Assembly: GCF_963676685.1 (NCBI RefSeq)
Contig: NC_092353.1
Location: 50,158,001 to 50,222,000 of the forward strand
Length of the DNA stretch: 64,000 nucleotides
Origin: Mytilus edulis
Lineage: Eukaryota
Direction: 5' to 3'
The notes under the pieces are model-generated. The model saw only the letters and a program-made list of their open reading frames with translations, had not been told where the DNA came from and ran no database searches. Below, piece by piece: positions 7,547 to 63,146 of this stretch. The position numbers were made by a program, and so were the translations under genes. How positions within the stretch are numbered: position 1 is the stretch's first letter; the number at the start of each line of letters is the position of its first letter.

Positions 7547-10450
7547 TCACAATCTTTCGTAACCGGCATCACGTTTTCTGCATTTCAAAAAGTAAACAAT
7601 CATTAGTATAACAACTGATACCCCGATTCCCAAAACTATTCCTCCTACAAAACTTGCACCATTAAATCTATACTTCTTCGTAGTGGTCGGCATTGCATGT
7701 GTTGTTGGATGTGGATTCGTTTTTGGAGTTGACATTGGTGTAGACATATTACTTGGGAGAGTTGATGGTTCTACTGTAACATTTGGGTTTGTAGTTGTTG
7801 GTTCTACTGTAACATTTGGGTTTGTAGTTGTTGGTTCTACAGTTATATTTGGGTGTGTGGTTGTTGGTTCTTTTGTAACATTGGGGTGTTTCGTTGTTGG
7901 TTTTACTGTAACATTTGGGTTTGCGGTTGTTGGTTCTACTGTTACATTTTGGTTTGTGGTTGTTGGTTCTACTGTAACATTGGGGTTTTTCGTTGTTGGT
8001 TCTACTGTAACATTTGGGTTTACGGTTGTTGGTTCTACTGTAACGTTTGGTTTTGTGGTTGTTGGTTCTACAGTTACATTTTGGTGTGTGGTTGTTGGTT
8101 CTACAGTAACATTTGGGTTTGTGGTTGTTGGTTCTATTGTAGCATTGGTGTTTTTAGTTGTTGGTTCTACTGTAACATTTGGTTGTTTGGTTATTGGTTC
8201 TACTGTTATATTTGGGTTTCTTGTTGTTGGTTCTACTGTAACATTGGGGTTTGTGGTTGTTGGTTCCATTGTAGCATTGGGATTTTTCGTTGTTGGTTCT
8301 ACTGTAACATTTGGGTTTGTGGTTGTTGGTTCTACTGTAACATTTGGGTTTGTGGTTGTTGGTTCTACTGTAACATTTCGGTTTGTGGTTGTTGGTTCTA
8401 CTGTCACATTGACGTTTTTAGTTGTTGTTTCTACTGTAACATTTGGTTGTATGGTTGTTGGTTCTACTGTAATATTTGGGTTTCTTGTTGTTGGTTCTAC
8501 TGTAACATTGGGGTTTGTGGTTGTTGGTTCTACTGTACCATTTTGGTTTTTCGTTGTTGGTTCTAGTGTCACGTTTGAGGCCTTAGTTACAGGTTCCATT
8601 GTAACATTTGCAGTTGGAGTTGTTGGCTCTACAGTAATGTTAGTATTTTTCGTGGTCGTAATATTTGGAGTTACCGTTGTTTGAATGGTAACATTGGAGA
8701 GTTTGGTTGTCTGACCAGTAATGTTTGAGTCTCTTGTAGTCGTTGCAGAACTAGCTGATGTTTTTTGGTCGGTTGTTGTCTGACTGACATTTGTTGCTAC
8801 AATGCCATTGACATGCTTTGTTGCTGAAAGGTAAAAACATAACTTTAAAGAATTGAAATCTCAACTGATTGATTAACAGAAAATCTTTTTAAAACATTTT
8901 AAAAAGTCTTATACATATTTGCTGTGTCTTTTTATCCCTTCTTTAAAACAGGTAGTGTATTACTATATTTTTTCTAGTCTATGCATAATATAAAAAAATA
9001 TCTATTTTTGTATTTGTATTTAAACTAGTATCAAAACTTTCACTTAATATTTCTACATATTTGTTATTTTTCTCACCTATACACATTCAATTTTGTTTTT
9101 ATCTATTATATATATTTTATGATAAATCAACGACTTCCCATTTTCTCCGGAGAGGAGTAGGTCCAATAAAAAACCCTTTTGGCCCCAAAACATAGCAGTT
9201 TAACAAAATTGGTAAACTGTAAGATTTTAGTTATTTATTGAAAAATAGAATGCTTTTGCTACATAAAAAAATGGCTGTTTTTGACAATACAATGCAAAAA
9301 ATATCGGGTATTTGCATCATTAAGTTATGCTAAATTACTGAAATCTCCCCTTTTTAGCATTTTAGTTAAATTTTAGACGGGTGCCGTCTTCAATGAAAGC
9401 GGCTGCATTTGTGTTCATTCTTAGTTTTGAAATGAAAGTTGTATTTGATGATAATACATAACATATATAAAGGTTGAGGATGAACACGGATGCGGCAACT
9501 TCGTTTTTGACAAAAACCATCTGAAAAGTGACATTTTTTTGGCATATTTGATAAGTTTTTCAAATTTAAGCTTGAATCGGAGCGTTTTTAATGAGTAGAT
9601 TAGTTTAAATCTATCACATAAACTAATTGAATCAACTGAAATAGACACTAAAGTGTTTAAAAAGTGTCCAAAATCTTTCGTCAGATGAACCTGACATTTG
9701 AGGCCAAAATCGGCCTTTACCGGACCTACTCCTTTTAGTTTTTTCATAAACCTGTATTTTAAAAACAAGGACACTAATTTCCCCATAATTTTATTTATCC
9801 ATGCTCTATCAAAACATAATTCTATTTATGAATATTGTGCGATTTCAAATTTTACTGATGAAAATCACATGAAATTTTCTTTAATAAAAAAACCCAGAAT
9901 TAATTAAAATTCAAATCGATTAATCAACTGCATTTTAAGAGAATTGGTACGTTATTAATTTGTTTGGGGTCTAATAAAAAGTATATTCCCATAGTATTCG
10001 TGTTACAAATGTAGAAATACACCGTTTTAACCGCATACAAAACATGCTGTATCCAATTCATATATTATAGAAATTAAACGAATAGCAGTATTTCATGTTA
10101 ACAATTCAATTCAATTCAAATCTGTATTGCCATAAAACTACATATTTATAGTATGTGATACAACATAACAAAATGAAAATAAAAAATAACAACAAGATCA
10201 TTAATATACACAATATTAAAAGTAACAAAGAGTTTAAAATTGATATTGTGAGTTTACAACGATAACCCGTTTAAATAAAAAAAAAATTATCAAACGAACT
10301 TTTACTCAAGAAAAATAAAAAAATAGTGAGTTGCACAATGACTTGAAATTTGAATCTGTTCAAAACTGACCTACCAATTCTAGGTTTAGAGTTTACTGCT
10401 GCAAAGCAGACAACCACTAGCAATATGGTGCTCCTATATGTAACATCCAT
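7547..10450 (-). CDS. CD164/porimin (TMEM123)-like type I membrane sialomucin, long copy, 450 aa, 2 exons
   Basis: Exon 1 10375-10450 (MDVTYRSTILLVVVCFAAVNSKPRI, signal peptide; phase-1 GTAGGT donor). Exon 2 7547-8823 (tttcag acceptor, in frame). Thr/Pro-rich ectodomain, then FNGASFVGGIVLG (CD164/porimin juxtamembrane-TM signature), TM helix and a short tail ending YERL (YxxPhi sorting motif). Confidence 0.88.
7751..8641 (-). repeat. Coding tandem repeat, 27 x 33 nt (NVTVEPTTTNP)
   Basis: Counted from the translation; each unit starts with an N-x-T sequon. Confidence 0.92.
9153..9733. mobile_element. MITE in the intron of the long CD164-like gene
   Basis: TIR AGGAGTAGGTCC/GGACCTACTCCT; absent at the paralogous site (~14850); partial copy ending ~12556. 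Confidence 0.8.
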
Positions 10451-13999: not shown

Positions 14000-15899
14000 T
14001 CACATTCTATCGTAACCGGCATCACTTTTTCTGCATTTTAAAAAGTAAACAATCATTATTATAACAACTGATACACCGACGCCTAAAACTATTCCTCCTA
14101 CAAAACTTGCACCATTAAATTTATACTTCTTTGTAGTGGTCGGCATTGCATGTGTTGTTGGATGTGGATTCGTTTTTGGAGTTGACATTGGTGTAGACAT
14201 ATTACTTGGGCGAGTTGAAGGTTCTACTGTCACATTGGGGTTTTTCGTTGTTGGTTCTACTGTAATATTTGGGTTTTTAGTTGTTGGTTCTACTGTAACA
14301 TTTGGGGTTGTGGTTGTTGGTTCTACTGTAACATTCGGGTTTTTCGTTGTTGGTTCCAGTGTCACGTTTGATGCCTTAGTTACGGGTTCCATTGTAATAT
14401 TTGAATTTTGAGTTGTTGGCTCAACAGTAATGTTAGAATTTTTCGTTGTCGATTCTTTCGTGATATTTGGAGTTATCGTTGTTTTAATGGTAACATTGGA
14501 GAGTTCGGTTGTCTGGCCAGTAATGCTCGAGTTTCTTGTAGTCGTTGCAGAACTAGCTGATGTGTTTTTGACGGTTGTTGTCTGACGAACAGTTGCTGCT
14601 TTAATGCCATTGACATTCTTTAGCACTGAAAGAAACAAAATATACTGAAGATAATTGTAATCTCAACTAAGACAAAACACGTACGTCTCAAGCATGGCCG
14701 CTGTGTCTTTTCACCCCTTCTTTAATACAGATATTTTATTACTAAAAGTACTCTTTTTGTTTTTTCTAATATAATTTTCTGACCTATACACACTCATTTA
14801 TTAATCTATTTGTTTTAAGATAAAACAACGACTTCCTTTTTCCTCCGGAATTTTCAGTTTTAGTTTTTTAAACTTGTATTCTAAAAACATGGACACGTAA
14901 TTTTATTATCCATGCTCTATCAAAACATAATTCTATTTATGAATATGCGATTTTAAATTTTACTGATAAAAATCACACGAAATTATCTTTTTAAAAAGAA
15001 CCAGAATTAATTAAATTTCAAATCGATTGATCAACTGAATTTTAAGAGAATCGGTACGTTATTAATTTGTTTGAGGTCTATATTCATTCCCATGGTATTC
15101 GTGTTAGAAATACACCGTTTTAACCCATTCCCATGCTATTCGTGTTTGAAATACACCGATTTAACCCATTCCCATGGTATTCGTGTTAGAAATACACCGT
15201 TTTAACCCATTCCCATGCTATTCGTGTTAGAAAGACACCGATTTAACCCATTCCCATGGTATTCGTGTTAGAAATACACCGTTTTAACCCATTCCCATGT
15301 TATTCGTGTTAGAAATACACCGTTTTAACCCATTCCCATGGTATTCGTGCAGAAATACACCGTTTTATTCCATTCCCATGGTATTCGTGATAGAAATACA
15401 CCGTTTTAACGGCATATAAACCATGCTGTAACCAATTTATATATTATAGAAATTAAACGAATAGCAGTAATGCATTTTAAAATTCCATTCAATTCAAATC
15501 TTTATTGCTATACGATTTATCAACTGAATTTTAAGTGAATTGGTATGTTATTTATTTGTTTAAGATCAATATTCAAATAGTATTCTTGTTGGAAATACAC
15601 CCTTTTAACCGCATACAAAATATGTTGTATCCAAGTTTACATACAGAAATTAAACGAATAGCAGTATATACTAGTATTATTTTAACAGTTTGAAATTGAT
15701 ATGGTAAATTTAAAACGAAACCTTTAAATAAGGAAGTAATCAAATAAAATTATAGTCAGGAAGAATAAAAATAGCGTTTTGCACAATCATATGAATTTTT
15801 TAAAATGTTCAAATATTACCTACCAATTCCAGGTTTAGAATTTACTGCTGCAAAGAATATAACCACTAGCAATATGGTGCTCCTATATGTAACGTCCAT
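14000..15899 (-). CDS. CD164/porimin (TMEM123)-like sialomucin, short copy, 233 aa, 2 exons
   Basis: Exon 1 15824-15899 (MDVTYRSTILLVVIFFAAVNSKPGI, GTAGGT donor). Exon 2 14000-14625 (tttcag acceptor, phase 1). Same FNGASFVGGIVLG-TM, tail ends YDRM. Clear paralog of 7547-10450. Confidence 0.88.
15085..15410. repeat. Intronic minisatellite, ~8 x 41 nt
   Basis: Unit cattcccatggtattcgtgttagaaatacaccgttttaacc. Confidence 0.9.
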
Positions 15900-33717: not shown

Positions 33718-34915
33718 TAAGGCTCTAAATTTCTATTTCAGCACCACACCAATTCAGTTTAAGGATATCCTGAAATATGTTAGGACCTTCATTATTTAAT
33801 TTCAGGAGGTTCTTAAATATATTAGGATTTTATTAATATTTAAGGAGCTCCACAATCATAATTATATACTTCAAGACCTCTATTAATTTATTTCAAGATA
33901 TCCCTAAATGTCAATGGAGGTTCGCAAATGTTGCAGGAACTCCACAATTGATTTATTGTAAATTATATCCTCAAATGCGTTGTGCAGGTTCACAAACATT
34001 TCAGTATGCTCAATGATTCATATTTATCTCCCAAATTATAATTCGTGAGGTGCTGAAATATTCATTGAGCTCCTTGAATACAAAATCTTTGACTCAGTAA
34101 TCTAAGTCTCGTGAGCTGCCGCGGATTGAGTACTCCTCTCTACCTCTTCCTCAGTGAAACGTTGATAACAATGTGACAATAAACATTTTTTTAACCCTTA
34201 CGTGAGAAACTAAGAGAAACATTGTGTATAAAAAACATATAAAGGGAGACATACTATGGTTTGATCATATTGATCGCAAACGTGGATCATTCCATCCAAG
34301 ATAATGTTACTAGAAATGTTAAATTCTCACTTTAAAAATTGAAACATAATTTGTATGGCTCAATGTTACCTCTTTGTAAGAAAATCTATCAGTACTGCTA
34401 TCGATCGAAATCATAATTTCTAATTTTTATCAGAACTGTTTTTCCCAAGAACATCTTGCGTTCCTGAAAATACTTGTTGGTTATTGACCAGACGATATTT
34501 TCCTGTTTCTTATGATATCATTATATAATTAAATATGAACTTGATGATGCTCTGTTACAAAAAACTGCTTGTGTAATTGGTTACCATAAAAAGACCTTAA
34601 AATTGTTTACAGGAAAAAACAAAATGGCACGGTTTCAGATTACATCTGTATTGGTAACTAATTTAAAACACAAGTCAAACTTACTGGAATGGATCAATGC
34701 ATATTCTTCTAATATTGTTTAGACAACAAATAAACACTTTTGGTCAACTTTTTATCTGCGATTTTGTGCGTCATTATAGTCATGTTCGTTTTAGTGTAGA
34801 TTATATTTTTTATTTGTTGGATCACACTGAATTCTATCCCTTTGTGGAGATTTTACTAGGATTTAGTCTCTTCCACATACTAGTAAGTTTTAAAATATTG
34901 AAAAGTGAGAAAAAA

Positions 34916-35494
34916 ATGTCGAATCACAAAGTACTAGACAATATAATGGACACCGTTTTAGAACGGAGAGGATCAAAATCTGTAGCAAAATCAGACTGGA
35001 AAAAGTCTACTGGTAAAAACTCGAGAGCAAGAGGGACAGGAAGCAAACTGAGTATCCATGCACAGACAAGAGAAAGGTCAATGTCGTCTGACCTAGATAG
35101 TATGGACATGCTGAGGTCAATCAAGCGTGGAGTTAAGTACGAAAATACTTTCCGTCTAGAACCAAAGGACGACGAACTATTTTCATGTTCTAAGATGGAA
35201 AAAGCAATGCAAGAGATTATGGAAGAAGTAATCGGCGACGCACCTTACGACTCCGTCACGTGCAATACTCTAGTTCATACCGTATCCAATCAGATCAAAG
35301 ATAGAGCAAAAATATTCCCATGGAAACGGTATAGGTTCATAGTTCATGTTATCCTAGGACAGAACACGAATACATCAATAAAGGTTGGCAGCAGATGTAT
35401 ATGGGATGAACATCGGGACACTTTTGCTACTGCCTCATATGAGAACAAAACAATATTTGCCATGGCAACATGCTTTGCAGTGTATTTGGATTGA
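34916..35494 (+). CDS. Tctex1 domain-containing dynein light chain (DYNLT/TCTEX1D-like) A, 192 aa, intronless CDS
   Basis: YENTFRLEP...RYRFIVHVILGQ...VGSRCIWDEHRDTFATASYENKTIFAMATCFAVYLD. The probable ATG is 34916; the upstream part of the ORF track is low-complexity and UTR-like. Confidence 0.9.
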   Translation: MSNHKVLDNIMDTVLERRGSKSVAKSDWKKSTGKNSRARGTGSKLSIHAQTRERSMSSDLDSMDMLRSIKRGVKYENTFRLEPKDDELFSCSKMEKAMQEIMEEVIGDAPYDSVTCNTLVHTVSNQIKDRAKIFPWKRYRFIVHVILGQNTNTSIKVGSRCIWDEHRDTFATASYENKTIFAMATCFAVYLD

Positions 35495-40034: not shown

Positions 40035-41342
40035 ACTGGTTCAATGGTCCAATCGTATGACAGAAACAGCATGATGTTGCAGTTTCGACAGTGGTAGATT
40101 AAAGGCCGTGTACTAGTGGTTGTCGCAACACATCCATTTTTCTTTAAGCTACTTTAATAACGTAAAATATTAATAAAATGATGATCGATAAAAAAGGATA
40201 AACTCTCTAAGCTCCTAGATCCCTTCTGTCAAAATTTGAAGTTATTAGATTCACCCCTGTTGAACACCTATTAAATACGTCAGTGTCGATTTCATCAAAC
40301 TGATCTGGCTACATCACGTGACAGTATTGAAGAAGTATGATATTATTTATAAAAGAGAGACGAAGATACCAGAGGGACATTCAAAAGCAAAAGTCGAGAA
40401 AACAAACTGACAACGCAATTGTTTAAAAAAGAAACAGACAAACAGAAGTACATAAAACACAACATACAAAATTAAATACTAAGCAACACGAATCCCGCCA
40501 AAACGGGAGGTGATCTCAGCTAGGCGTTCTGGAAGGGTAGACAGATCCTGCTCCATATGGGGCACCATCCGGTGTTGCTCATGTCAGTACAAACCTGGAA
40601 ATAAGTCTAAATGCATCAGTGCATAGAAAACTGGAAGAAAAGAGAGAAGACCTTGGTGTCCTTTTTTGTGCAATGCCCGGATAAGAGACCTTAGTCTGCA
40701 ATAAGTTCAAAGTATTTGTTTCAGGCATGCATGCAGCTTCAAGCGAACCATTACACACTATAAACGGAAATGTGCATTATTGAACCATTTAATCAACAAA
40801 ACCCACATATTTATGAAACTTTAATACAAATGTAGTTGAATGACGTATTGCAATGAAAAAAAAGCAGAAAAAGTCGTGTTTATTAATTACTAGCCAATTC
40901 AGAAAATAACAATTGTCATTGTACACACACGAAAAAAAATCTATATTCTTATAATTATCTCTTTACCTGAGTAGAAAATGAGATTTAACAGTAAGAAACA
41001 ATCTCAATCTGTAAAATAAGATAATGTATACATTTCAACTAAGTCAATATAATTAAGGCTGTCATTCATAAATACTTCATAAAACCCATTTGTATCGTCA
41101 AATAGAAGGCTGTGATCACGAATTGAGGATCAGAATCGATGATTGTGCGCCAGCTTTTCCATAGGATATTTATCGGGTAGAATTCTCAGTAATCCACAGA
41201 TATTTATAACGTAGGTACGGTGAATGGATGGATTTAATCAATGTTTGACACGCTTTTAGATAAAATTATCTAATTGCGAAGTTCATTCTGGTTTCCGTTA
41301 TAAAGTGAATATTGACTAAGTATTTGTTTATTGCGGAAAAGC

Positions 41343-41897
41343 ATGACGATGGATTCTAGGAGGATACGGAGAACACACGGACATGGCGGTGGTCATATAC
41401 CTGGGCATGGACAGAACCTGACTGTGCCGGGCAGGCTTACAAAAGCCCATGGGCATACTTTAAGGGATCACAAAGGAAACGATAGTAAATCTGAAAGCTC
41501 TGATCATGACAGAGGGAAATATTTTCATGAACATGTCAGACTTGAAAATACATTCCAACTGAATCCATGTGAGGATTATAAGTTTTCTAGCAAACAGATG
41601 GAAAGAGCAATGAAAGAAATATTAGACAAACAGTTAACCGAGACGGACTATAACGGGAAAATATGCCCGACAGTTGCCGCAAACTTGTCATCCTTAATAA
41701 AAGAACGAGCTAAGGAGTTTCCATGGAAACGGTACAGATATGTTGTACAAGTTGTAGTTGGAGAGAATTCTGAGCAAGCAGTACAGATAGGTAGCCGCTG
41801 TATATGGGATGAAAAGAACGATAATTTTGCATGTGTTACTTTTAAAAATAAAACTGTGTTTGCCGTAGCTGCATGTTATGGGATTTATTTAGAATGA
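41343..41897 (+). CDS. Tctex1 domain-containing dynein light chain B, 184 aa, intronless CDS
   Basis: LENTFQLNP...FPWKRYRYVVQVVVGE...GSRCIWDEKNDNFA...FAVAACYGIYLE; first ATG at 41343. Confidence 0.92.
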   Translation: MTMDSRRIRRTHGHGGGHIPGHGQNLTVPGRLTKAHGHTLRDHKGNDSKSESSDHDRGKYFHEHVRLENTFQLNPCEDYKFSSKQMERAMKEILDKQLTETDYNGKICPTVAANLSSLIKERAKEFPWKRYRYVVQVVVGENSEQAVQIGSRCIWDEKNDNFACVTFKNKTVFAVAACYGIYLE

Positions 41898-46096: not shown

Positions 46097-47009
46097 TAAA
46101 TAACATTTTTTGTTGGTTTTGGTCAATCCAAGGTAAAATGCCACTTATTATGACATTGGTCTACACATTCCCAATTTTGTTTTTCATTTCAATATTACTT
46201 TTTTTTTTACAATGCTTGAATGACAATAAGGCACATTCCAGTCCATAAGGTAAATACGTTTGCTTCATAAATATAAACACTGTTGAGATTGCTCGTTTAA
46301 TTTTAGACTGTTTCAAGTAGTCAGCCGAGAACCAGCTTACATGCACGCTTCGTCGGTAACGTCAGGATTTGTGTTCGCAGCAACTTTATAGTGCAGTAAA
46401 AAGTACATCAACCATGCAGTTAGTTAAATTAGGTACAGACATTTGACTTTATTAAAAGCAATTAAAAATCGATTTTAATAATTCCAAAAGTTAAATCAAT
46501 TTCACGAACAAGAAGAACTTTCGCTTCAAAATAAATGGCACAAAATATAATTAATAAAAATGTAAATAATTTCAATAAGCACTGAAAATAATGATTCCAT
46601 TATAACTAAGGATAATTGCAACTTGGCAGTGATAACAAAACATAATATGCATTTTATTGAAAATTAATCGAGACTTTGGATCTTCTCACTATTAATAATA
46701 CAGTTGAATTGAATGCAGACATTAGTCAATGATACATCCGCCATTATAATTTAGGTATGTATAGCATTGAACAAGATTTAATTAACTATAAGCAATTGTG
46801 TTCATTCATCTGTCATGTATTGGTTGTCAAGCAAGTTCAATTAAACAATAGAAAAATCTAAATCATTTTAGAAAGTCTTTAATTCGATTCACTGGTTCCA
46901 TTAATTCAAAACTTGCAAATTCATTTTTGACTTTATATAACATTCTGTAATATTTATTCTTGTTGAGAGACATTGTAAATAGAAATTTGTGGATTTTACA
47001 ACAAAAGCA

Positions 47010-47510
47010 ATGGATAAAGCATATCTACAGAGACCAACAGCTAGAGCAGCTCAGCTTCGTGCTGCCACCAAAAGTCAAACACCGTCAGGACGTCGAGACG
47101 ATGAAAGCAACTGTCGATCTGAAACTACAGACGAACTTAATAAATTCAAATGGGAAAATACATACAAAATGGATCCTGACAATTTACTCTCGGAAAATAC
47201 AATTCAAGGCACAATGAGACAGGCAATTAAAGAACTCATTGCCGGTGAAGACGACGATTTTCTCGAGTCAGAGGGCAGGGGTCATTTGTGTGCGAAACTA
47301 ACAGACGACATCAAGCATCGAATAAAAACGGAATATGCTAATACTAGGTACAGATTTATAATTCATGTAACTATTGTTCAAGATTTTGCCACTTTTTCCA
47401 TCGGAAGTAGATGTTTATGGAACGATAACACAGACAATCACATGACAGTTTCCATACCTTTTGGTGATAGTTATATTGTATCAACTTGTTATGCTGTTTA
47501 TTTTGAATAA
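47010..47510 (+). CDS. Tctex1 domain-containing dynein light chain C, 166 aa, intronless CDS
   Basis: WENTYKMDP...RYRFIIHVTIVQ...GSRCLWNDNTDNH...CYAVYFE; first ATG at 47010. Confidence 0.9.
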   Translation: MDKAYLQRPTARAAQLRAATKSQTPSGRRDDESNCRSETTDELNKFKWENTYKMDPDNLLSENTIQGTMRQAIKELIAGEDDDFLESEGRGHLCAKLTDDIKHRIKTEYANTRYRFIIHVTIVQDFATFSIGSRCLWNDNTDNHMTVSIPFGDSYIVSTCYAVYFE

Positions 47511-52117: not shown

Positions 52118-52763
52118 GCAATACAATGAAATTCAATATAATACAATACAATATAAAGAATAATAGAACATTAAGAGTTCAATTATAAATGTATATTAAA
52201 AACACCATCATAACCATGATAACCTTGCCTGACACGGGTCCGACTCCCTCAGTTCTAAAGACTGTTTAATGATAGCCAGAAAATCCCGCACACGAAGACG
52301 TGCATCAGCGGCTCCCTAAACAAAAATATGTACTAGTTCAGTGACAATGGACGTCATACCTAACTCCAAAATATATAAATGAACTAAAATTGAAAAATCA
52401 TACAAGACTAACAAAGGCTCCTGACTTGGGACAGGAGCAAAATGCGGCGGGGCTAAACATGTTTTTTGAAATCTCAACACTCCCCCTATACCTCTAGCCA
52501 ATGTTGAAAAAACACACAGCAATACGCACAGTAAACTAGGTTAAGAAGAATTCATGCATAGTCTATTGTCAGCTACGATATTTGATTGTTTTCTATTAAG
52601 TAACGAAACACAAACTAAATTCATGGGTTGACTTGTCACTGTTCTATCTTTTGAATGATTAACCTTTCACACTAAAAACAAAAGATTTAATTGTCTGTTA
52701 ATCGTTAATTACTTAGTACGTTTAACCCAAGTACATTATGTGTGTATATCTTAACAAGACAAA

Positions 52764-53252
52764 ATGGAAACGCGTCTCCCAAGACTTAGTAGATTTTCTA
52801 ATTTAGTGAGAAACGTTATCAAGTCTCCTCACATCTTTAAGCGAGAAGATGACAGCAGCCGAACTGAAACGAGCGAAGAACCTAAAATTCGTTATGAGAA
52901 TACATATAGGATAGCACCAGATGACACTATCGCAACCAAAATTGTCAACAGTATCATGAACAATACAATACTGGAGGTGGTTTCCGGAGAGGAGGAAGAT
53001 TTCTTGGATAAAGAGGGGCGTGGTTTTCTCTGCACGCGACTGAGTGATGCTATCAGACAACGAATCAAAGCGGAGTATTTTAACAGTCGTTTTAGAATAA
53101 TTGTACACGTAACTATTGTTCAAGAAAACGCTACAATTTCTGTTGGAAGTAGATGTCTATGGAATGATTCTACAGATACACATACATCTGTGACTGTACC
53201 ATTCGAGGATAGTGTGATCGTGGCAACTTGCTACATGTTATACTATGAATAA
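52764..53252 (+). CDS. Tctex1 domain-containing dynein light chain D, 162 aa, intronless CDS
   Basis: YENTYRIAP...RFRIIVHVTIVQ...GSRCLWNDSTDTH...CYMLYYE; closest paralog of C. Confidence 0.9.
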   Translation: METRLPRLSRFSNLVRNVIKSPHIFKREDDSSRTETSEEPKIRYENTYRIAPDDTIATKIVNSIMNNTILEVVSGEEEDFLDKEGRGFLCTRLSDAIRQRIKAEYFNSRFRIIVHVTIVQENATISVGSRCLWNDSTDTHTSVTVPFEDSVIVATCYMLYYE

Positions 53253-54943: not shown

Positions 54944-56878
54944 TTAATTGTGCGGGCCATCTTTGACACTGATATTCCATAATTTTCAACCCAATCATGC
55001 TGGCATCTGTTTAACTTTTGAAGAGCTGACCTCGACTTTACCATCATGAACCAAATTGGTTCAAAGGTGACAACAACAACCTCCCTTGAAGGCAATCATG
55101 ATAAGATACATACAATTTACAATATTGTATGAACTGCGGTTGATTTTACTCCATTAGAAGATATTGTTTGATTTATTTATTTTTTTGGATAGAAATGGTG
55201 AGTTCACGAAAGGAAATATAAATTTTTCTTTTGTTGTAAATTTTACTTGCATTACGAGGAGATGGCCTTACATGTTGTATGTAGCTCTAACGAGTCTTAG
55301 TACCTACAATGTATATCTAATCCCCACCTTCCTGAGAGTGAAGAAGTTTCACATTAATTTAGAGGAGGGGTTTTCATTGCTGGTATTAAATATAGAAACT
55401 TTCATTTAATGTTTTCGTGGCGCATATGACAGACAAATCAATATAATAAAACATAATTTGTTATGACACGCCGCGATATGGATAAGAAATATAATATTAT
55501 TGACTGATTGTTTGTTGCTTGACGTCCATTGGCAAATATTTCAGGGAAGATCCATAAGTTGGGAATATGATTTAAAACGGACCAAATATTATTTAGTGTG
55601 TATCGATAGACGTGGAGTATACGTTTCAAGTTTCCTTGTGAATTTTTATTATTATATTAACGAACAGGAGAGACCAATATTTGTTCTATGACACCCACAC
55701 GAAGCGTTAATATAAATCAAAGTATGTATACCAACTTTATAAATTATACAACATCATAAAAATTTAAACAGTAGGACAGAGTTATTCTATATTTACTTAC
55801 ACTCCATTCACTTTTAATACTTGAACTTTTTTTAAAAAGGGAAGTGAAATCGAGTCAAGGGTGTAATATCAGTTTTAGTGATCAATGATTTCTTTTAAAG
55901 TGTAATTTTCTTATGTGAAATTGGGCAATAATCATAAATCCATATACTAGTGTATGAAGTTTACGATCGTACCCACAACTGTCACTTCTTCAAGGTTATT
56001 TTTTTAAGATTTGGGGTCAATTGTTGAATACCTATAAGACGCCAGTAAAAAATTACACTTCTTGAAATAGTCAGTAAACAAATAGTGATTGTGACATTTT
56101 TCTTCAGAAAAAAAAATGTTTATAAATATAAGCAACCCGGCGAAAATAGTTCTTCGCTGTAGACTAACTTACATGGGGAGCAGAAAGAAGACAAACGGGC
56201 TTTCAAACTCACAAGTCGAAGTAGTCCGCGTTTGTTCTGACGTCTAACAACTGTTTTGCCAGACAAGGCAGCTAGGCAGTGACTCAAGTCAAAAATAAAT
56301 TAAACTTACAACGCAAATGAAAGAGAACAGTTAAAAAGTAAAAACAACAGTATACTACACACGTTCTCCCTTTCTTTCCCAGATCCCTGTTTCTATTTAC
56401 TCTAATAACCGACATCCAACTTTTTATATATATCCCGCATCCCAAAATATTCATAAACACTCATACTTGCAATAAATATATAAAAAAAAAACTGTATTTT
56501 TGTATACAATAACTTTATCTTAATTCACGTTAACCCTCAAAAAGTCAAGTAAATATCACAATTACAGCACATAATAATTTATACAAAAACATATCATTTA
56601 CAACAAATGCTTCATGTTTTCAAGACTACTCATATAAAAGTATTTATTATTTAACTGTATTAATTTGCAATCTTTCACTCCTAAAGTCAACTTATTCCAT
56701 ATGTATGCAAAAGAAAAACATAAAAGTTTTCTAAAGTTTTTTTTCTCACTTTTTTTGTGTTATCTTTGGCTTTGGCAGGCTAAACAATTTCTCAACTGTT
56801 TGAAATTTGTTCTTTAAAATGCAAAACCTCAATGAGCTCTCTGACTACTATGTACAATATTTGAGGCTGGTACTTGTA

Positions 56879-59800
56879 CTATTGAATACTACAACCCCTA
56901 CGCCGGGATTTTATAGTTTTTTCCTTAGAGTCCTTTTTAATTAATTGCTCAATTCCATCGACACATGTATTATTTAAGTCTTCATTCTGACACTGATGTT
57001 TTTGTTCAAGGTGCGCATATGCTTTTACTGAATTTACTGTAGCGGTAATTGGTGCAACACGTGCTACTTGTAGTCTAGATTCATCTGAACTCCATTGAGA
57101 ATCGCAGCTTTCATCAGTTAATTCAACAGGGAAACGGATTGTCGGTATATTTGGCATAGAACCTACAATAAAATGATAACTTTAAGATCTTTTAACCCAC
57201 ATGCAATATTATTTTTAATGTTATCAATATTTCTTCACGGTTATAGCTAATACATTATCTTATCGAAAACATTCTCATTTTAAGAGATGATTCAAAGGGG
57301 GAAGAGGTCGCAATGTTTTTCAGCATAAAATCTTCAAAACAAATTTAAACTCGCTACGCTTCTCGTTTTTTTTCTTCGTCCCGATTTAATGGAATTACGC
57401 CCCCTTATGAAAAATCCTACATCCATCCCTAAATGTAAGAGCACATAAGCACACTGGTCCCCTGTTGTATTCAGTTATTGCTACGCTTCGGTGCGGAGTT
57501 TAGTTGGAACGGGGGACCAGCTTACTCCGTAGTATATCTGAGGTAGTTAAAGCAGACCCACGTTTGCCTACTTTGTCATGTGTCAATATATATACTCACG
57601 TGATATCTCGTCTGCTATAAATTCCTGATTTGTATGGGTAAGGGCATTACAGAGGGCCTTAATTCCATAGTGTTTTGTTGTGAGAACATTGATTAAACGT
57701 AATAGTCTTTCCTCCTTATTCCTAGGTTCTCTGATAAACATCTCAGTCACGTGCGTTAACACGTGCTGAGATATCAGGTATGGTATCAAGTCATTTACTT
57801 GGTAAATATTGTTCAAGATGAAAGGAATCTTCTCATGGAGTATTCGCACTTCTGTCTTTGACATTGGCTTTCCTAAATAGATATCAAACAGTCGTGTATA
57901 TTATTTAATTTCTGAAAAAGTTGTTAAGCTTTTAAATTGTATTATCAAACGTGTTTGAAATTGCCATACTCATCTCTAACTTTGTAGATAGATATATAGG
58001 AAGATGTGGTGTGAGTGCCAATGAGACAACTCTCATAGTCATTCAAATAACAATTTAAAGAATGTAAACCGTTATAGGTCCATGTACGGCCTTCAACACG
58101 GAGCCTTGGCTCACACCGAACAACAAGCTATAAAGGGCCCCAAAATTACTAGTGTAAAAGCATTCAAACGGGAAAACCAACGGTCTAATCTATATAAAAA
58201 ACGAGAAACGAGAAACACGTATAAACTACATAAACAAACGCAACCACTGTACATCAGATTCCTATAGCAAACAAGTCCAAACAAAGCCGGCATGACAAGA
58301 CACCACTGCGAAATATTTAAACCTTCGAAAATATTCACTTTAGAAAAAAACCGATTTTAATAATACAGGTAAATCTTGAAGTTTATACAAATTTAGTAAG
58401 AAGAAGTGAAAATTTATATAAAATAACAAAAAAGCATTATAAACAGTATCAACAGGTCAAATTAACAAAAAAAATACGATTTGAGAGTACTCGCAGTTAC
58501 TGACAGCTAGTTAAAAGCCAAACACATGTACAATCAATAATAAAAAATCATGCATCATGCAGACTAAGTAGAGTTTACTATATCTATATATATATGCGTT
58601 CTTGCGCAGCTTCAATAATTCATATAAGTATTAAAGTTACCTCCGATATCAACACCAATGTCTTCTAATGCATTCAGTAACGTCACAAAGCTTTCGTCTG
58701 AGCTTTCATTTGACTGCCAAAACTTTATCGTCTGCCAAAACATTTCAACATAACCGTACTCCCTGCATTCTTCTACCTTTTCTATCTGGTGATTTGATAA
58801 ATGCAGTAATCGTCCCAGTCGACAAATATTTGGACCTGGGTGACAAAGTTTATTTAGATAACTTATTACAGTTTTTTTTTGTTGTTTTTAAATCAATGGA
58901 TTTGAAATTGGATATTTGATGATTTAAAGACAAATTAAAGAACTCTTTTCGAAAATTTTATGTGATTTCTTTACAAATGTTTACCAAATTTGAAAGATTT
59001 CAATCAGTCATGTTCAGAAGTAAACTAGATTAATGCAACTTTTTCTTTCGATTTTCAGGCAGTTCAATGAGCAAAGGATGTGTGCAACTTTTTTCCAAAA
59101 TCTGAAACATAGCCCATATATTGTTCCTTGTCCTTAACATCATCACTACGACATCTCAAATAAAACCTCTAAACTAAAGTTACTAGGCATTTTCAAGTTA
59201 TCTTCCAATGGATTTTTCCATCTATTTCAGTTCTTACCAGGCCAAACATTCATTTACAAAATCATCCTGCCTCTCCCCTCTGAGGCTCACGCTAAAAAAA
59301 TCAAATCGGCGTCCCTTAGGCCTTAAACGGTTTACAAATTTGTATACATACCAATCATTTCCTCATATTTTTGACAAAAACATTTCAATTCAGTCGGCAT
59401 TCTGTAGAATGTAGTATTCGTATCCACGTTGTCTACATTCTTATGACTCAGATTTGATATTTCAATCAAAACCTGATTTATCTGTTTTTGAATTTCTTGA
59501 AATGGAGTTTGCTGTGAATTTCTCTCAACCATTGGACTGACAGAAACCTAGAAGTAAAACACACCAATACATTAAACGTGTGCCTTCTTTTTGTATATGC
59601 AATTGAAGTAAAGCAAACAAAGCTATGACATAACATAACAAAATACAAAAGAGAAGACTTCGTCTCAGAAATGTTTTCCTATATACCTCAAAAATTACAT
59701 TAGATGTATGTTTCATTATAATATTTTATTCTGATTGGCTAACTGCACATCACGTGTTATTCCGTAAGCAGTTGCATTGCTCAATACAACTTTTCACTCA

Positions 59801-61426
59801 TGATAACACGTGCTCCAACAATAAAGTGCACAGGTGAATTAAATAATAAAATTCGTGTTTTCACGATCATAGCTAAAAAATGTAATTATAAGTATTGAAT
59901 GCTTCTTTTTGTAACTTTATAGGGTTGTAAAAGCGTTGACCGTGCGTACATTTTTAGTACTTCGGTCAACGTTTTGACACCCCAATAAATTTACAAAAAG
60001 AAGCATGCAATTCTTAATATAATGGTTTATCATGAAATTTAAGAATTTATTTCTGTGACCTGTGTTGGGAACTTACCACTGGCTGCTTCAGCATAACGTT
60101 TTCTCTGCTGAGTGTCTGTATATGGTTCTCCATTTCTCTGATTCTTTTCTCCAACTGGTATCGTATTGTTTGTTCATGGTGATAGTTGTTAAATGCTCTA
60201 TCTCCATCTACAATCGCAATGTGTTTAGCTATTTTCTTGTCTCTTTGAGTTTGCGTCAGTTGAGCCTGGAGTCTGAGAATCTGGTTTTGAAATTCTTGTT
60301 CATTTTCTAAAGTAGCTGTTCGTTCCACTTCCCTGATATATACCTGTGCATCGTCTTTCCTATTCCTTGATTGGTTTTTTTCTGTTAAAATTTTGAACAA
60401 AATACACGATTGATTGTTGGTTACTATAGTACTTAACGTTCAGTGGCAAATATTTCATGCCGGAATAAAATATACGAAGAATTTAAACTAATACACCATA
60501 TCGCTTTTTACTCCAATCCGAATAAGATCTGAAATTACACAACTTTTACACCCATTTGACATCTATCTGGGGCCCAGTTTAAACAATGTATTACGCATAA
60601 ACCTTTTTATTTATAAAAAAATATTTTTAAACAATCATAAAAAGCTTCAAAAAACTGTTATGATTTTAATATATATATATATTGTTTGCTTTCTATACAA
60701 TTTCTTTCCTTAACTTGAAACAGTTGACGTTTGTTGTTGCAATGTTTGAACCAAACAGGAATTTGTCTTAATTACGATAAATAGCGATAAGGTGTATTCT
60801 ATATACCCATTCAAAAATAAAAGCGTTTTTTAACAAGACATAGACATAAACAAAAGTAATCCAAATCCATTCCAAGCAACATCGTCGCATATATTGATGA
60901 AAAATCAATAAAAAGCATACACAAAACTATGAAAAGACAAAAATCTAAAAACCTTTCGGAATTGAAACAGCCTTTTTAAAAGAGAAGGTACAAGTCTAAA
61001 ACAGAACTTACCTTCTGCATAATACCCATCAACCATTCGTTTCAGCTTTTGTAACACTTTGACAAAGTTTGTACGTCCTTTTATCTTTGGCAATTCATTT
61101 AATAATGGTGGCATTCTTCTTAGTTTTCTGTTGTCTATTATAATAATGTGTCTTTCTAGACAAATTGCCAAAGCAACATCATAAACACATTCAGTCGAGT
61201 CTATAAAGCTATCGGACAAAAGTACCACCACTAAGTCTGACTTTAGAACCGCATTTCTTTTGTTGTCTAGTATCATACATCCGGGTATAAAATCTCTGTC
61301 TCCGTATATAATTCCAATATTAGAATCTTCCAAGCGTTCGATGATTCGTTTCGATTTATTTCTTTCGTCTTCATCTCCACCGTCAGACAAATAAATGGTA
61401 AAGTTACCGCTTACGTCCATTACCAT
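56879..61426 (-). CDS. Multi-domain adaptor-like protein: TIR - coiled coil - Death domain - CARD - polybasic CaaX, 555 aa, 6 coding exons
   Basis: Exons 61012-61426 (TIR: DRDFIPG, VVVLLSDSFIDSTEC), 60077-60381 (coiled coil), 59352-59547, 58641-58835 (Death domain: IGPNICRLGRLLHLSNHQIEKV...MFWQTIKFW...TLLNALEDIG), 57600-57872 (CARD: LIPYLISQHVLT...RLLRLINVL...LCNAL...QEFIADEI), 56879-57162 (ends KSRRRGCSIQ*). All introns GT-AG, phases 1,0,1,1,1; 1668 nt, open. Possible polyA signal at 56643-56648. Confidence 0.8.
57995..58265 (+). repeat. High-copy interspersed repeat (aagatgtggt...gccaatgagacaactc family)
   Basis: Copies at ~5845-5990, 24025-24260, 44160-44300; fragments at 3935-4030, 6430-6545, 62280-62560. 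Confidence 0.75.
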
Positions 61427-62986
61427 TTAATGTCATTTAATCTAAAAGGAAATGGGAACATATCTTTTAAATTAATGTACATGTATAAGCAAAGCGCAAT
61501 TGTTCTTCGACCCTTAGCGATATACTGACTAGTCTTGGTGGTTTACTAAACTGTCAACTCTATGGTTGGAAGTTCTATCTTGAATGAAAAGCATTGGCAA
61601 TTTGCCGCCCCTTTTTACCATCAGGTACTCTGGCTTCCTCAAATTATAAAGTCCGTAAATATATATATGACATAACGCTTAAACACAAACAAACAAACAT
61701 TTTGTTCACATACATTATACGGTTATTTACAAGATGCAATTTTGAACGTTAATATAAGAGTTACAAAAGTTAAGTAGGATTGTAGTTTATCTAAGTTTTG
61801 TGTGAAATTGTGGCTTAAACCTGTACGAATCTAGATTTTCCTTTCGAAGTGATATTTATTGTGAACCGTTTCGAACTTCTAAGCTCCGATCGAATATTAA
61901 CAGCTTTCAGACTGTGTTTTATTATGTATCAAGACTACACAATCTTAAATTGAAAAAAAAGTTGTTCTGTGATTTTCATGCTTACCCTATGACGATAACC
62001 TTTTAAGCAGCATCTCATTAAATTAATGGCTCTCCAACCTCCATGTAAACAGGAAGTTTTTGTATGTATTTATGTTTACATGACACTGGGAAACCCTGAT
62101 TTTTATATATCTATAAAAAGTATTTATTAAAATGTCTAAATTGATTCGGATGTAGGTCAATGTATAAGTAAAGGTTCTTGTAATCACTTCCTTAAGGCTT
62201 TTATATCTTCTTCTGTATACATCTTTTGTCCACAAGTTAAAAAACAGGACATCTTTGAATATATAATGGTGTTGAATTTTCTGTGTTGATTGTTTTGACA
62301 CAGGAAGTTTATTGGCCTGTTACCCAGTGGTTGTCGTTTTATGCTGTGTTGCATATTTGTTTTTCCTTCATTTATTTTGTACATAAATCATTTACTTTTC
62401 TCGTTTGAATTGTTTTATAATTGGCATTTCGAACTGTTTATAGCTGACTATGCGGTATGGGATTTCGGTGAACTATGGTTGTTAATATCTGTGTCATTTG
62501 GTTACTTGTGAAGAGTTGTATCTTTGAGAATCACACCACCATGACCTCATCTTTTTTCTGTATATTAACAGACTGAGTGTGATAATATAGGTGAAGGGAA
62601 AGACCAGCATCTGTTTTAGTTTATAGTTTTGATACACTGAGCCAAGCAGGGTCTAAGGGATCAATCCATGATAGTAATATGAAAGATTCTAATCTTCAAT
62701 CGATATATCAGAAGTCATCATATTGCTTTTTAAAGCTACACTCTACATGTTCTTTTAAAAAATACCAGAGGGACATCCAAAACTGATAGATAAAAAATAA
62801 ACTGACAATACTGACGAACATACAAATTATAGTACACAAGACTCAATATAGAAAACTATAGACTAAGCAACACGAAACCACCAAAAAATGGGGATGATCT
62901 CAGGTGCTCCGGAAGGGTAGGCAGAATGCCGATCCTGCTCCACATATAAACTTTTAATTATTCATACATGTAAGTTTTATACTTAC

Positions 62987-63146
62987 CATATACCGGTTAC
63001 GTTTTAAACAACATCAAACTTGTGTACGCTCTACATCTGCCTGGTATAAACAGGAAGCTTGTTTATGGTTAGGTGACAGTGGAAATACCCGTTTTTTTTG
63101 TATATTTAAAAAGTCTTTTAAATGTCTTTATTGATTGGTTGAGTCA
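62987..63146 (-). promoter_or_regulatory. Putative 5' non-coding exon and promoter of the TIR-DD-CARD gene
   Basis: GTAAGT donor at 62986-62981 that could pair with the ccttttag acceptor at 61442. Upstream cluster: ETS CAGGAAG 63051-63057, kB-like GGAAATACCC 63081-63090, CCAAT 63134-63138, AP-1 TGAGTCA 63140-63146. Confidence 0.45.

Follow-up and report, generated by a model that had tools for sequence, protein, structure and literature searches.

TIRAP/Mal and Drosophila dMyD88 are TIR adaptors that are pre-positioned at the plasma membrane, and dMyD88 possesses a death domain (DD), as does the mussel TIR protein described here. Both bind PI(4,5)P2 electrostatically, but no prenyl group is reported for either in the passages of PMC6901815 on these anchors, and their domain order is different from that of the mussel protein. 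TRAM (TICAM2), the sorting adaptor of mammalian TLR4, resembles the mussel protein in having a TIR domain, no transmembrane helix, and a covalent lipid with an adjacent polybasic region (PMC6901815). However, TRAM is N-myristoylated and consists of a TIR domain alone, while in the mussel protein the lipid is a predicted C-terminal prenyl group and the TIR domain is accompanied by a coiled coil, a DD and a CARD; orthology is not implied. The anchors listed in the same passages are PIP binding in TIRAP and dMyD88, a myristoyl group with a polybasic region in TRAM, and transmembrane segments in MAVS and STING, prenylation being named there as a general mechanism only (PMC6901815), so that the preliminary description of this DNA undercounted when it presented a prenyl anchor as a third way of holding such proteins at the membrane. 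If the prenylation predicted below is true, it would join the anchors used by TIR adaptors.

The MyD88 family, like the mussel protein, combines a TIR domain with a DD, and it is the nearest Atlas cluster at 0.75, which is a lead only, as all Atlas structure rows for the mussel family are under the bar. Membership in this family was rejected on domain order, since MyD88 has an N-terminal DD and a C-terminal TIR domain, while in the mussel protein the TIR domain comes first, followed by the DD, a CARD and a CaaX tail.

In Ras proteins the CaaX lipid acts with a second signal, either a basic patch or a palmitoylated Cys. The second signal of K-Ras4B is an unbroken lysine run adjoining the CaaX box, while a CaaX box with an upstream Cys is the pattern of the plasma-membrane Ras isoforms. 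The Ras-family anchors (K-Ras4B, CVIM; H-Ras, CVLS; Rap2A, CNIQ; Rap2B, CVIL) are similar to those of the bivalve family in containing a CaaX box and a candidate second signal; the protein from Saccostrea echinata ends with the H-Ras box CVLS, and one oyster paralogue group with the Rap2B box CVIL. Unlike the mussel protein, Ras proteins have a GTPase domain, and the mussel basic patch is interrupted. Prenylation is also found in innate-immune proteins such as GBP and ZAP-L. OAS1 p46 is an immune protein with a CaaX box which, as in the bivalve family, is kept across species without similarity of the tails, according to the relevant part of PMC8357416. OAS1 p46, GBP and ZAP-L are, however, sensors or effectors and not TIR/death-fold adaptors.

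TIRAP is unexpected in protostomes, and it has been suggested that uncharacterised TIR proteins take the place of TIRAP, TRAM or TRIF in mussel and oyster (PMC3308963, PMC4346834), with no candidate named in the sections of these two papers on the proposal. The family with the TIR-DD-CARD-CaaX architecture provides a named candidate. The invertebrate ecTIR-DC families (Gerdol et al. 2017, PMID 28109746, as cited in PMC6321704) comprise TIR proteins of the bivalve cytosol for which an adaptor or regulatory role has been hypothesised, and this main survey of bivalve TIR proteins may already have catalogued the TIR-DD-CARD architecture. The literature searched, which lay mostly outside subscription journals, contained no report of a prenylated TIR/death-fold adaptor, of this architecture or of six of its gene ids. 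No TIR-DD-CARD-CaaX protein is described in the pertinent parts of PMC3308963, PMC4346834, PMC6321704, PMC5549309 and PMC9334734, and the terms “prenyl” and “farnesyl” are absent from the main text of a 2026 review of MyD88-family adaptors (PMC13564108, term search). The parts are all known, while their combination appears to be undescribed.

The window, a 64-kb stretch of Mytilus edulis DNA, contains the gene on its minus strand. Its six coding exons, defined by translation and splice joints, are connected in frame with GT-AG ends and encode a protein of 555 amino acids, 100% identical to XP_071135180.1 of M. edulis (P0008), which NCBI names uncharacterized. The exon 61012..61441 contains the ATG at 61426 (coding part 61426-61012) and codes for the TIR domain (residues 1–138), recognized by Pfam, by alignment with the TIR domains of TLR2 and TLR15 and by a fold match. 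The exon 60381-60077, placed by its joints and by the helices of the structural model, encodes the long helices of a predicted coiled coil (residues 139–240). The linker exon 59547-59352 (residues 241–305; joints and model) ends within the first death-domain helix, and the exon 58835-58641 encodes the death domain identified by Pfam (residues 306–370). The CARD exon 57872-57600 (residues 371–461), assigned by fold match, has phase 1-1 and can be skipped in frame, as in several gene models. The coding part of the last exon, 57162-56879, corresponds to a low-confidence and likely disordered tail (residues 462–555), and is followed by a 3′ UTR (56544..56878, from contig cover and a motif scan) with an AATAAA at 56648 and an end that is not fixed.

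None of the runs listed as containing the sequence is recorded as RNA, and splicing was judged from spliced joints and not from run labels. In contigs of run X1, each of the five introns between coding exons, and one on the 5′ side, appears as a CT..AC joint, and raw reads of the RNA run X24 span four of those joints, the last of them by one read. The joint between the CARD exon and the last exon (57160/57598, CT..AC) is present in 6 of the 8 runs examined, namely in contigs of X1, X2, X3, X4 and X14 (listed “RNA?”) and in X24, while the RNA runs X21 and X22 gave no depth over the last exon in the 6% of each run that was read. A different last exon in transcripts had been named beforehand as a finding that would refute the proposed anchor; none was seen in the 8 runs, where the sole other joint, at 57164, corresponds to skipping of the CARD exon. 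CARD-skipped forms retaining the tail are found in the models P0006, P0009 and P0019 (M. edulis and M. galloprovincialis) and at the end of an X4 contig. On the 5′ side, the joint 61441/62987 (CT..AC) in an X1 contig has 85 letters on its upstream side and defines a non-coding exon of at least 85 nt (62987..63071), the 5′ end of which is not fixed. The leader contains two upstream ATGs on the minus strand, one opening a 3-codon frame across the first intron (62989-62987 joined to 61441-61433) and the other an out-of-frame 10-codon frame from 61434 that overlaps the main ATG.

The protein contains, in this order, a TIR domain, a coiled coil, a DD and a CARD, followed by the CaaX tail. The Pfam matches to TIR (E 1e-6) and Death (E 1.4e-6) are both above the cut-off, while that to CARD (E 0.005) is below it. 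The AlphaFold model has a mean pLDDT of 61 and a pTM of 0.33, with the domains mostly at 70–90, and two long helices (residues 144–194 and 200–235) separate the TIR domain from the DD. Residues 374–466 of the model superimpose on CARD-complex chains of Apaf-1/caspase-9 with a Z-score of 16.3 and an rmsd of 1.4 over 92 residues, and residues 8–134 match the TIR domain of Hydra TRR-2 with a Z-score of 16.0. The best match of the family-profile DD among solved chains is the FADD death domain, which is weak (E 4e-4), and that to RIPK1 is also weak.

By sequence, the TIR domain is closest to those of TLR15, TLR2, TLR6 and TLR1, and its BB-loop, RDFIPG, is that of TLR2; in M. coruscus the BB-loop Pro is replaced by Leu. 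The position in the αC helix which we take to be that of the catalytic Glu of SARM1 is occupied by Asp in all five mussel-type TIR domains aligned, and by Glu in the matching TLR domains. An NADase activity of the mussel protein was rejected on account of this Asp. A membrane-tethered, NAD+-cleaving TIR enzyme with its death folds used for oligomerisation is a very unlikely alternative: SARM1 and SPARTA TIR domains are among the fold matches and the Glu is kept in the oyster TIR domains (YELSLAL), but the mussel domains lack it and the best sequence matches are TLR domains, which also have that Glu.

The minus strand from 56938 to 56879 reads KKDSKEKTIKSRRRGCSIQ-TAG, and the protein accordingly ends with KKDSKEKTIKSRRRGCSIQ. 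The CaaX box C552-S-I-Q and the stop occupy 56879..56893 (Cys codon 56893-56891, stop codon 56881-56879). The early reading of the final exon as one that ends in a CaaX box with X = Q is thus borne out: it is the true last exon, and the Cys is at position −4 of the actual C-terminus. Residues 467–555 have a pLDDT below 50 and are unstructured in the model, which means that the motif is likely exposed. The preceding basic patch, K537–R550 (56897..56938), contains 8 Lys/Arg and 2 Asp/Glu by residue count, and its net charge is +6 in this allele and +5 in the common allele. All four further runs have a deletion of 3 nt at 56901, which gives the tail KSRRGCSIQ with two Arg instead of three. Two Arg are also present in every other Mytilus protein that extends to the end, which makes +5 the usual charge.

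Canonical-looking CaaX ends are found in 14 of the 2102 stop-ended segments (0.7%) in the six frames of the window, and a Cys at −4 in 80 of them, so that the motif alone is weak evidence. The tail exon used as a query against the mussel genome found two genomic copies only. Two word-based searches with mussel queries reached Mytilus alone, and a profile search of representatives opened the set of oyster homologues, which a further search then completed. The Cys at −4 is present in ten named species, which are five Mytilus species, Magallana gigas, Magallana angulata, Crassostrea virginica, S. echinata and S. cucullata, and Logan proteins are also among the oyster-type homologues found. Among the matches listed, it occurs in 53 of 57 clade proteins of at least 440 amino acids, many of them near-copies and with shorter exon fragments excluded. 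The four exceptions are P0022, which is labelled partial, P0133 and P0134 from Magallana gigas, and P0029 from Pinctada. The latter, a pearl-oyster TIR-DD-CARD model of the same clade, ends without a CaaX box, as does the fragment P0024, and the ends of all five CaaX-less models may be mis-modelled. P0134 (UniRef K1Q2N1) is an old Pacific-oyster model in which two tandem paralogues of the family are fused and both CaaX ends dropped; of its two units, the second clusters with the CVIL/CIIL paralogues. A metagenome scan for further bivalve loci found none.

The five Mytilus species end in GCSIQ within tails that are 76–88% identical overall. The oyster proteins end in eight other boxes, CSLS, CVLS, CVIL, CIIL, CMIS, CILS, CIIS and CVLM. 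In a gapless alignment of 14 representatives anchored at the C-terminus, −4 is the sole invariant column among the last 20; position −2 (a2) is Ile or Leu in all 14, and position −1 is Gln, Ser, Leu or Met. The 25 residues just before the Cys share only 2–6 identities between mussel and oyster, as against 27–29 of 82 in the DD and 31–36 of 91 in the CARD. Selection acting on a prenylation signal would leave this picture: a fixed Cys, few residues allowed at a2 and X, and neighbouring positions that vary freely. That the box is an unused chance ending is extremely unlikely, for the conservation in oysters puts it beyond chance: barely alignable tails end in eight different boxes, all with Cys at −4 and Ile or Leu at −2. 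The similarity of the Mytilus tails regardless of function, the background frequency of such ends in the window and the Pinctada models without CaaX would fit an unused ending. The deep comparison spans two lineages, Mytilus and Ostreidae, and within it the conservation of the Cys in orthologs, on which the preliminary description had made its proposal depend, extends well beyond Mytilus.

The DD and the CARD are the best-conserved parts of the protein and stay adjacent. In a DD-CARD tree rooted at the midpoint only, a 100/99 branch, at which long branches meet, separates the mussel, oyster and Pinctada proteins from five DD-CARD paralogues that lack a CaaX box and come from Mytilus, scallop and one further source. 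The best match of an oyster CARD in the mussel genome is this gene (E 9e-11), the next one having an E of 1e-5. The TIR domains of mussel and oyster share 17–27 identities in 138 positions, with an hhalign probability of 42%; the oyster domain has no RDxxPG loop, and no TIR domain can be recognised in the S. cucullata model. A search of the mussel genome with the oyster TIR exon gave no hit at E 0.01, and no solved chain was matched by the profile of the oyster TIR domain. The constant core of the family is DD-CARD-CaaX. Five CARD loci on contig C8 (40.89–40.93 Mb and 43.17–43.18 Mb) match the P0098/P0032 type of DD-CARD paralogue, the database proteins of which have neither a TIR domain nor a CaaX box. 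The chiton protein P0036 (XP_064612480.1) is more distant and has TIR and CARD matches, a DD-CARD-like region and no CaaX box at its modelled end.

The membrane anchor had initially been called K-Ras-like, a term which fits loosely: basic residues do stand beside the CaaX box in mussels, but the patch is interrupted. Of the 15 residues that precede the Cys in mussel tails, 7–8 are Lys/Arg, and two or three acidic residues interrupt them. The acidic residues of the present protein are D539 and E542, and its longest Lys/Arg run is three (two in the common allele). The expected conservation of the basic residues in orthologs holds for a cluster at −18, −17 and −15, with Lys/Arg in 11, 11 and 10 of the 14 representatives, respectively, but not for the local charge, which is lower in oysters. 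A strict K-Ras4B-type polybasic anchor was rejected, as there is no unbroken run and the oyster cluster is located 13–19 residues from the end.

In oyster members with X = Ser or Met, the net local charge is +2 to +4 and an upstream Cys occupies position −8, or −5 in S. cucullata. The CVIL/CIIL paralogue group has no upstream Cys, and M. coruscus combines its basic patch with one at −8. The Cys at −8 or −5 in most oyster members is a candidate palmitoylation site, and across the family an upstream Cys is likely to be a commoner second signal than a basic run next to the box, which makes “Ras-like two-signal anchor” the better description. By the Ras rule, three combinations may be expected: farnesyl with a basic patch, farnesyl with palmitoyl, and, for CVIL/CIIL, geranylgeranyl with a basic cluster.

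It is unlikely, though possible, that the protein is prenylated and resides on endomembranes (ER, Golgi or endosome), similarly to OAS1 p46, serving an intracellular sensor or a death platform. The Asp/Glu interruptions of the basic patch and the net charge, which falls to +1 to +3 in several oyster members, are consistent with such a location, but Lys/Arg in mussels are concentrated beside the CaaX box (7–8 of the last 20 residues vs 4–6 of the roughly 70 other tail residues), and most oyster members with X = Ser or Met add the upstream Cys typical of plasma-membrane Ras. A CaaX box alone directs OAS1 p46 to the Golgi, as stated in the corresponding part of PMC8357416.

Tetrapeptides of the family were compared with published prenylation data. 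In a yeast Ras-recruitment screen, where about 6.2% of 8000 Cxxx motifs pass a cut-off of 3 (PMC4358939), CSIQ has an enrichment of 3.22, just above the cut-off, and CVIM of K-Ras4B has 3.37. The values for the oyster boxes are 11.8 for CVLS, 10.3 for CIIL, 9.0 for CIIS, 8.9 for CVIL, 7.1 for CILS, 6.9 for CMIS and 6.7 for CVLM, while CSLS of Magallana gigas has 2.71, just below the cut-off; eight of the nine family tetrapeptides are thus above it (all from the S2 data of PMC4358939). Since the yeast reporter has palmitoylated cysteines of its own, these values concern the tetrapeptide and not the mussel tail (PMC4358939). In file 7 of PMC9231725, each of the four columns on prenylation and the two on cleavage is positive for CSIQ, but the predictors used there were trained on the same yeast screen with CSIQ in the training set and are hence not independent of it. 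CNIQ of Rap2A and CCIQ of PDE6A are farnesylated and CVIL of Rap2B is geranylgeranylated (table in PMC7674641), and CNIQ has been observed bound to human FTase (PMC3188499). The classification of the mussel box as a farnesyltransferase-type motif, made at the outset from its pattern, agrees with its positive membrane recruitment in the yeast data (PMC4358939 S2; PMC9231725). The mussel genome contains ICMT-family and three Prenyltrans-family (prenyltransferase-beta) loci, in which FTase and GGTase are not separated. By analogy with these motifs, prenylation of the mussel protein is predicted as very likely.

The explanation that accounts best for these observations is that the TIR-DD-CARD protein with its conserved CaaX box is probably farnesylated and held at a membrane, where it would serve as a pre-positioned adaptor. 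From CaaX biochemistry, Cys552 would very likely receive a farnesyl group, after which SIQ would be removed and the new terminus methylated. Stable membrane binding would then probably depend on the lipid together with the second signal, which would be the Lys/Arg patch in mussels and palmitoylatable Cys at −8 or −5 in most oysters. The protein would be held on the cytosolic face, with the plasma membrane or the endosome as the likeliest site, at about even chances. In the next step, which is the most speculative and only tentatively proposed, the TLR-type TIR domain might dock on the TIR domains of activated Toll-like receptors or of MyD88, after which the DD and the CARD might bring in a partner with a death domain and a caspase with a CARD. 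Skipping of the CARD exon would drop the CARD output and keep the anchor. We infer the plasma-membrane location and the role of a TLR sorting adaptor, and a TLR-binding role shared by the family is not assured, given that the TIR domain is poorly conserved, lacks RDxxPG in oysters, has the loop Leu in M. coruscus and is not recognisable in the S. cucullata model.

Conversely, the protein may be a membrane-tethered decoy or brake, which sequesters TIR, DD or CARD partners and dampens Toll or caspase signalling. With three interaction domains, no catalytic domain and a TIR domain that diverges fast between lineages, the protein could act in this manner, and TIR-only MyD88-like genes of oyster have been proposed as competitors in a section of PMC4346834. 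We consider this improbable, as the DD and CARD, best conserved and adjacent, suit an ordered relay.

An extension of the adaptor explanation, which is doubtful at present, is that mussels and oysters have a prenylated sorting adaptor by which, within one polypeptide, TLRs at the membrane are wired directly to a partner with a death domain and to a caspase with a CARD. Its anchor would be tuned in the manner of Ras isoforms, with farnesyl and a basic patch in mussels, farnesyl and palmitoyl-Cys in most oysters and geranylgeranyl without an extra Cys in one oyster paralogue, and CARD skipping would turn the death output off. If the proposal of a prenylated adaptor is right, bivalve Toll or death signalling would be tied to the mevalonate pathway, and the family would provide naturally occurring paralogues with different predicted lipids.

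The gene has an inverted second copy about 375 kb away, within a segment of at least 39 kb (C10:50579100-50618700) that is 93–99.9% identical and repeats the TIR-DD-CARD gene, with the tail KSRRGCSIQ, and the neighbouring Tctex-1 region. The segment is either a haplotype left uncollapsed or a segmental duplication of recent origin. In the window, the plus strand carries a tandem array of four genes for Tctex-1 (dynein light chain, PF03645) at 34667-35494, 41316-41897, 46983-47510 and 52755-53252, and in each of them a single open frame contains the domain. Two genes on the minus strand, at 7547-8860 and 14000-14662, encode MGC-24/CD164-type sialomucins that combine Thr/Pro-rich repeats with a transmembrane helix and have Tyr-based motifs in the tail.
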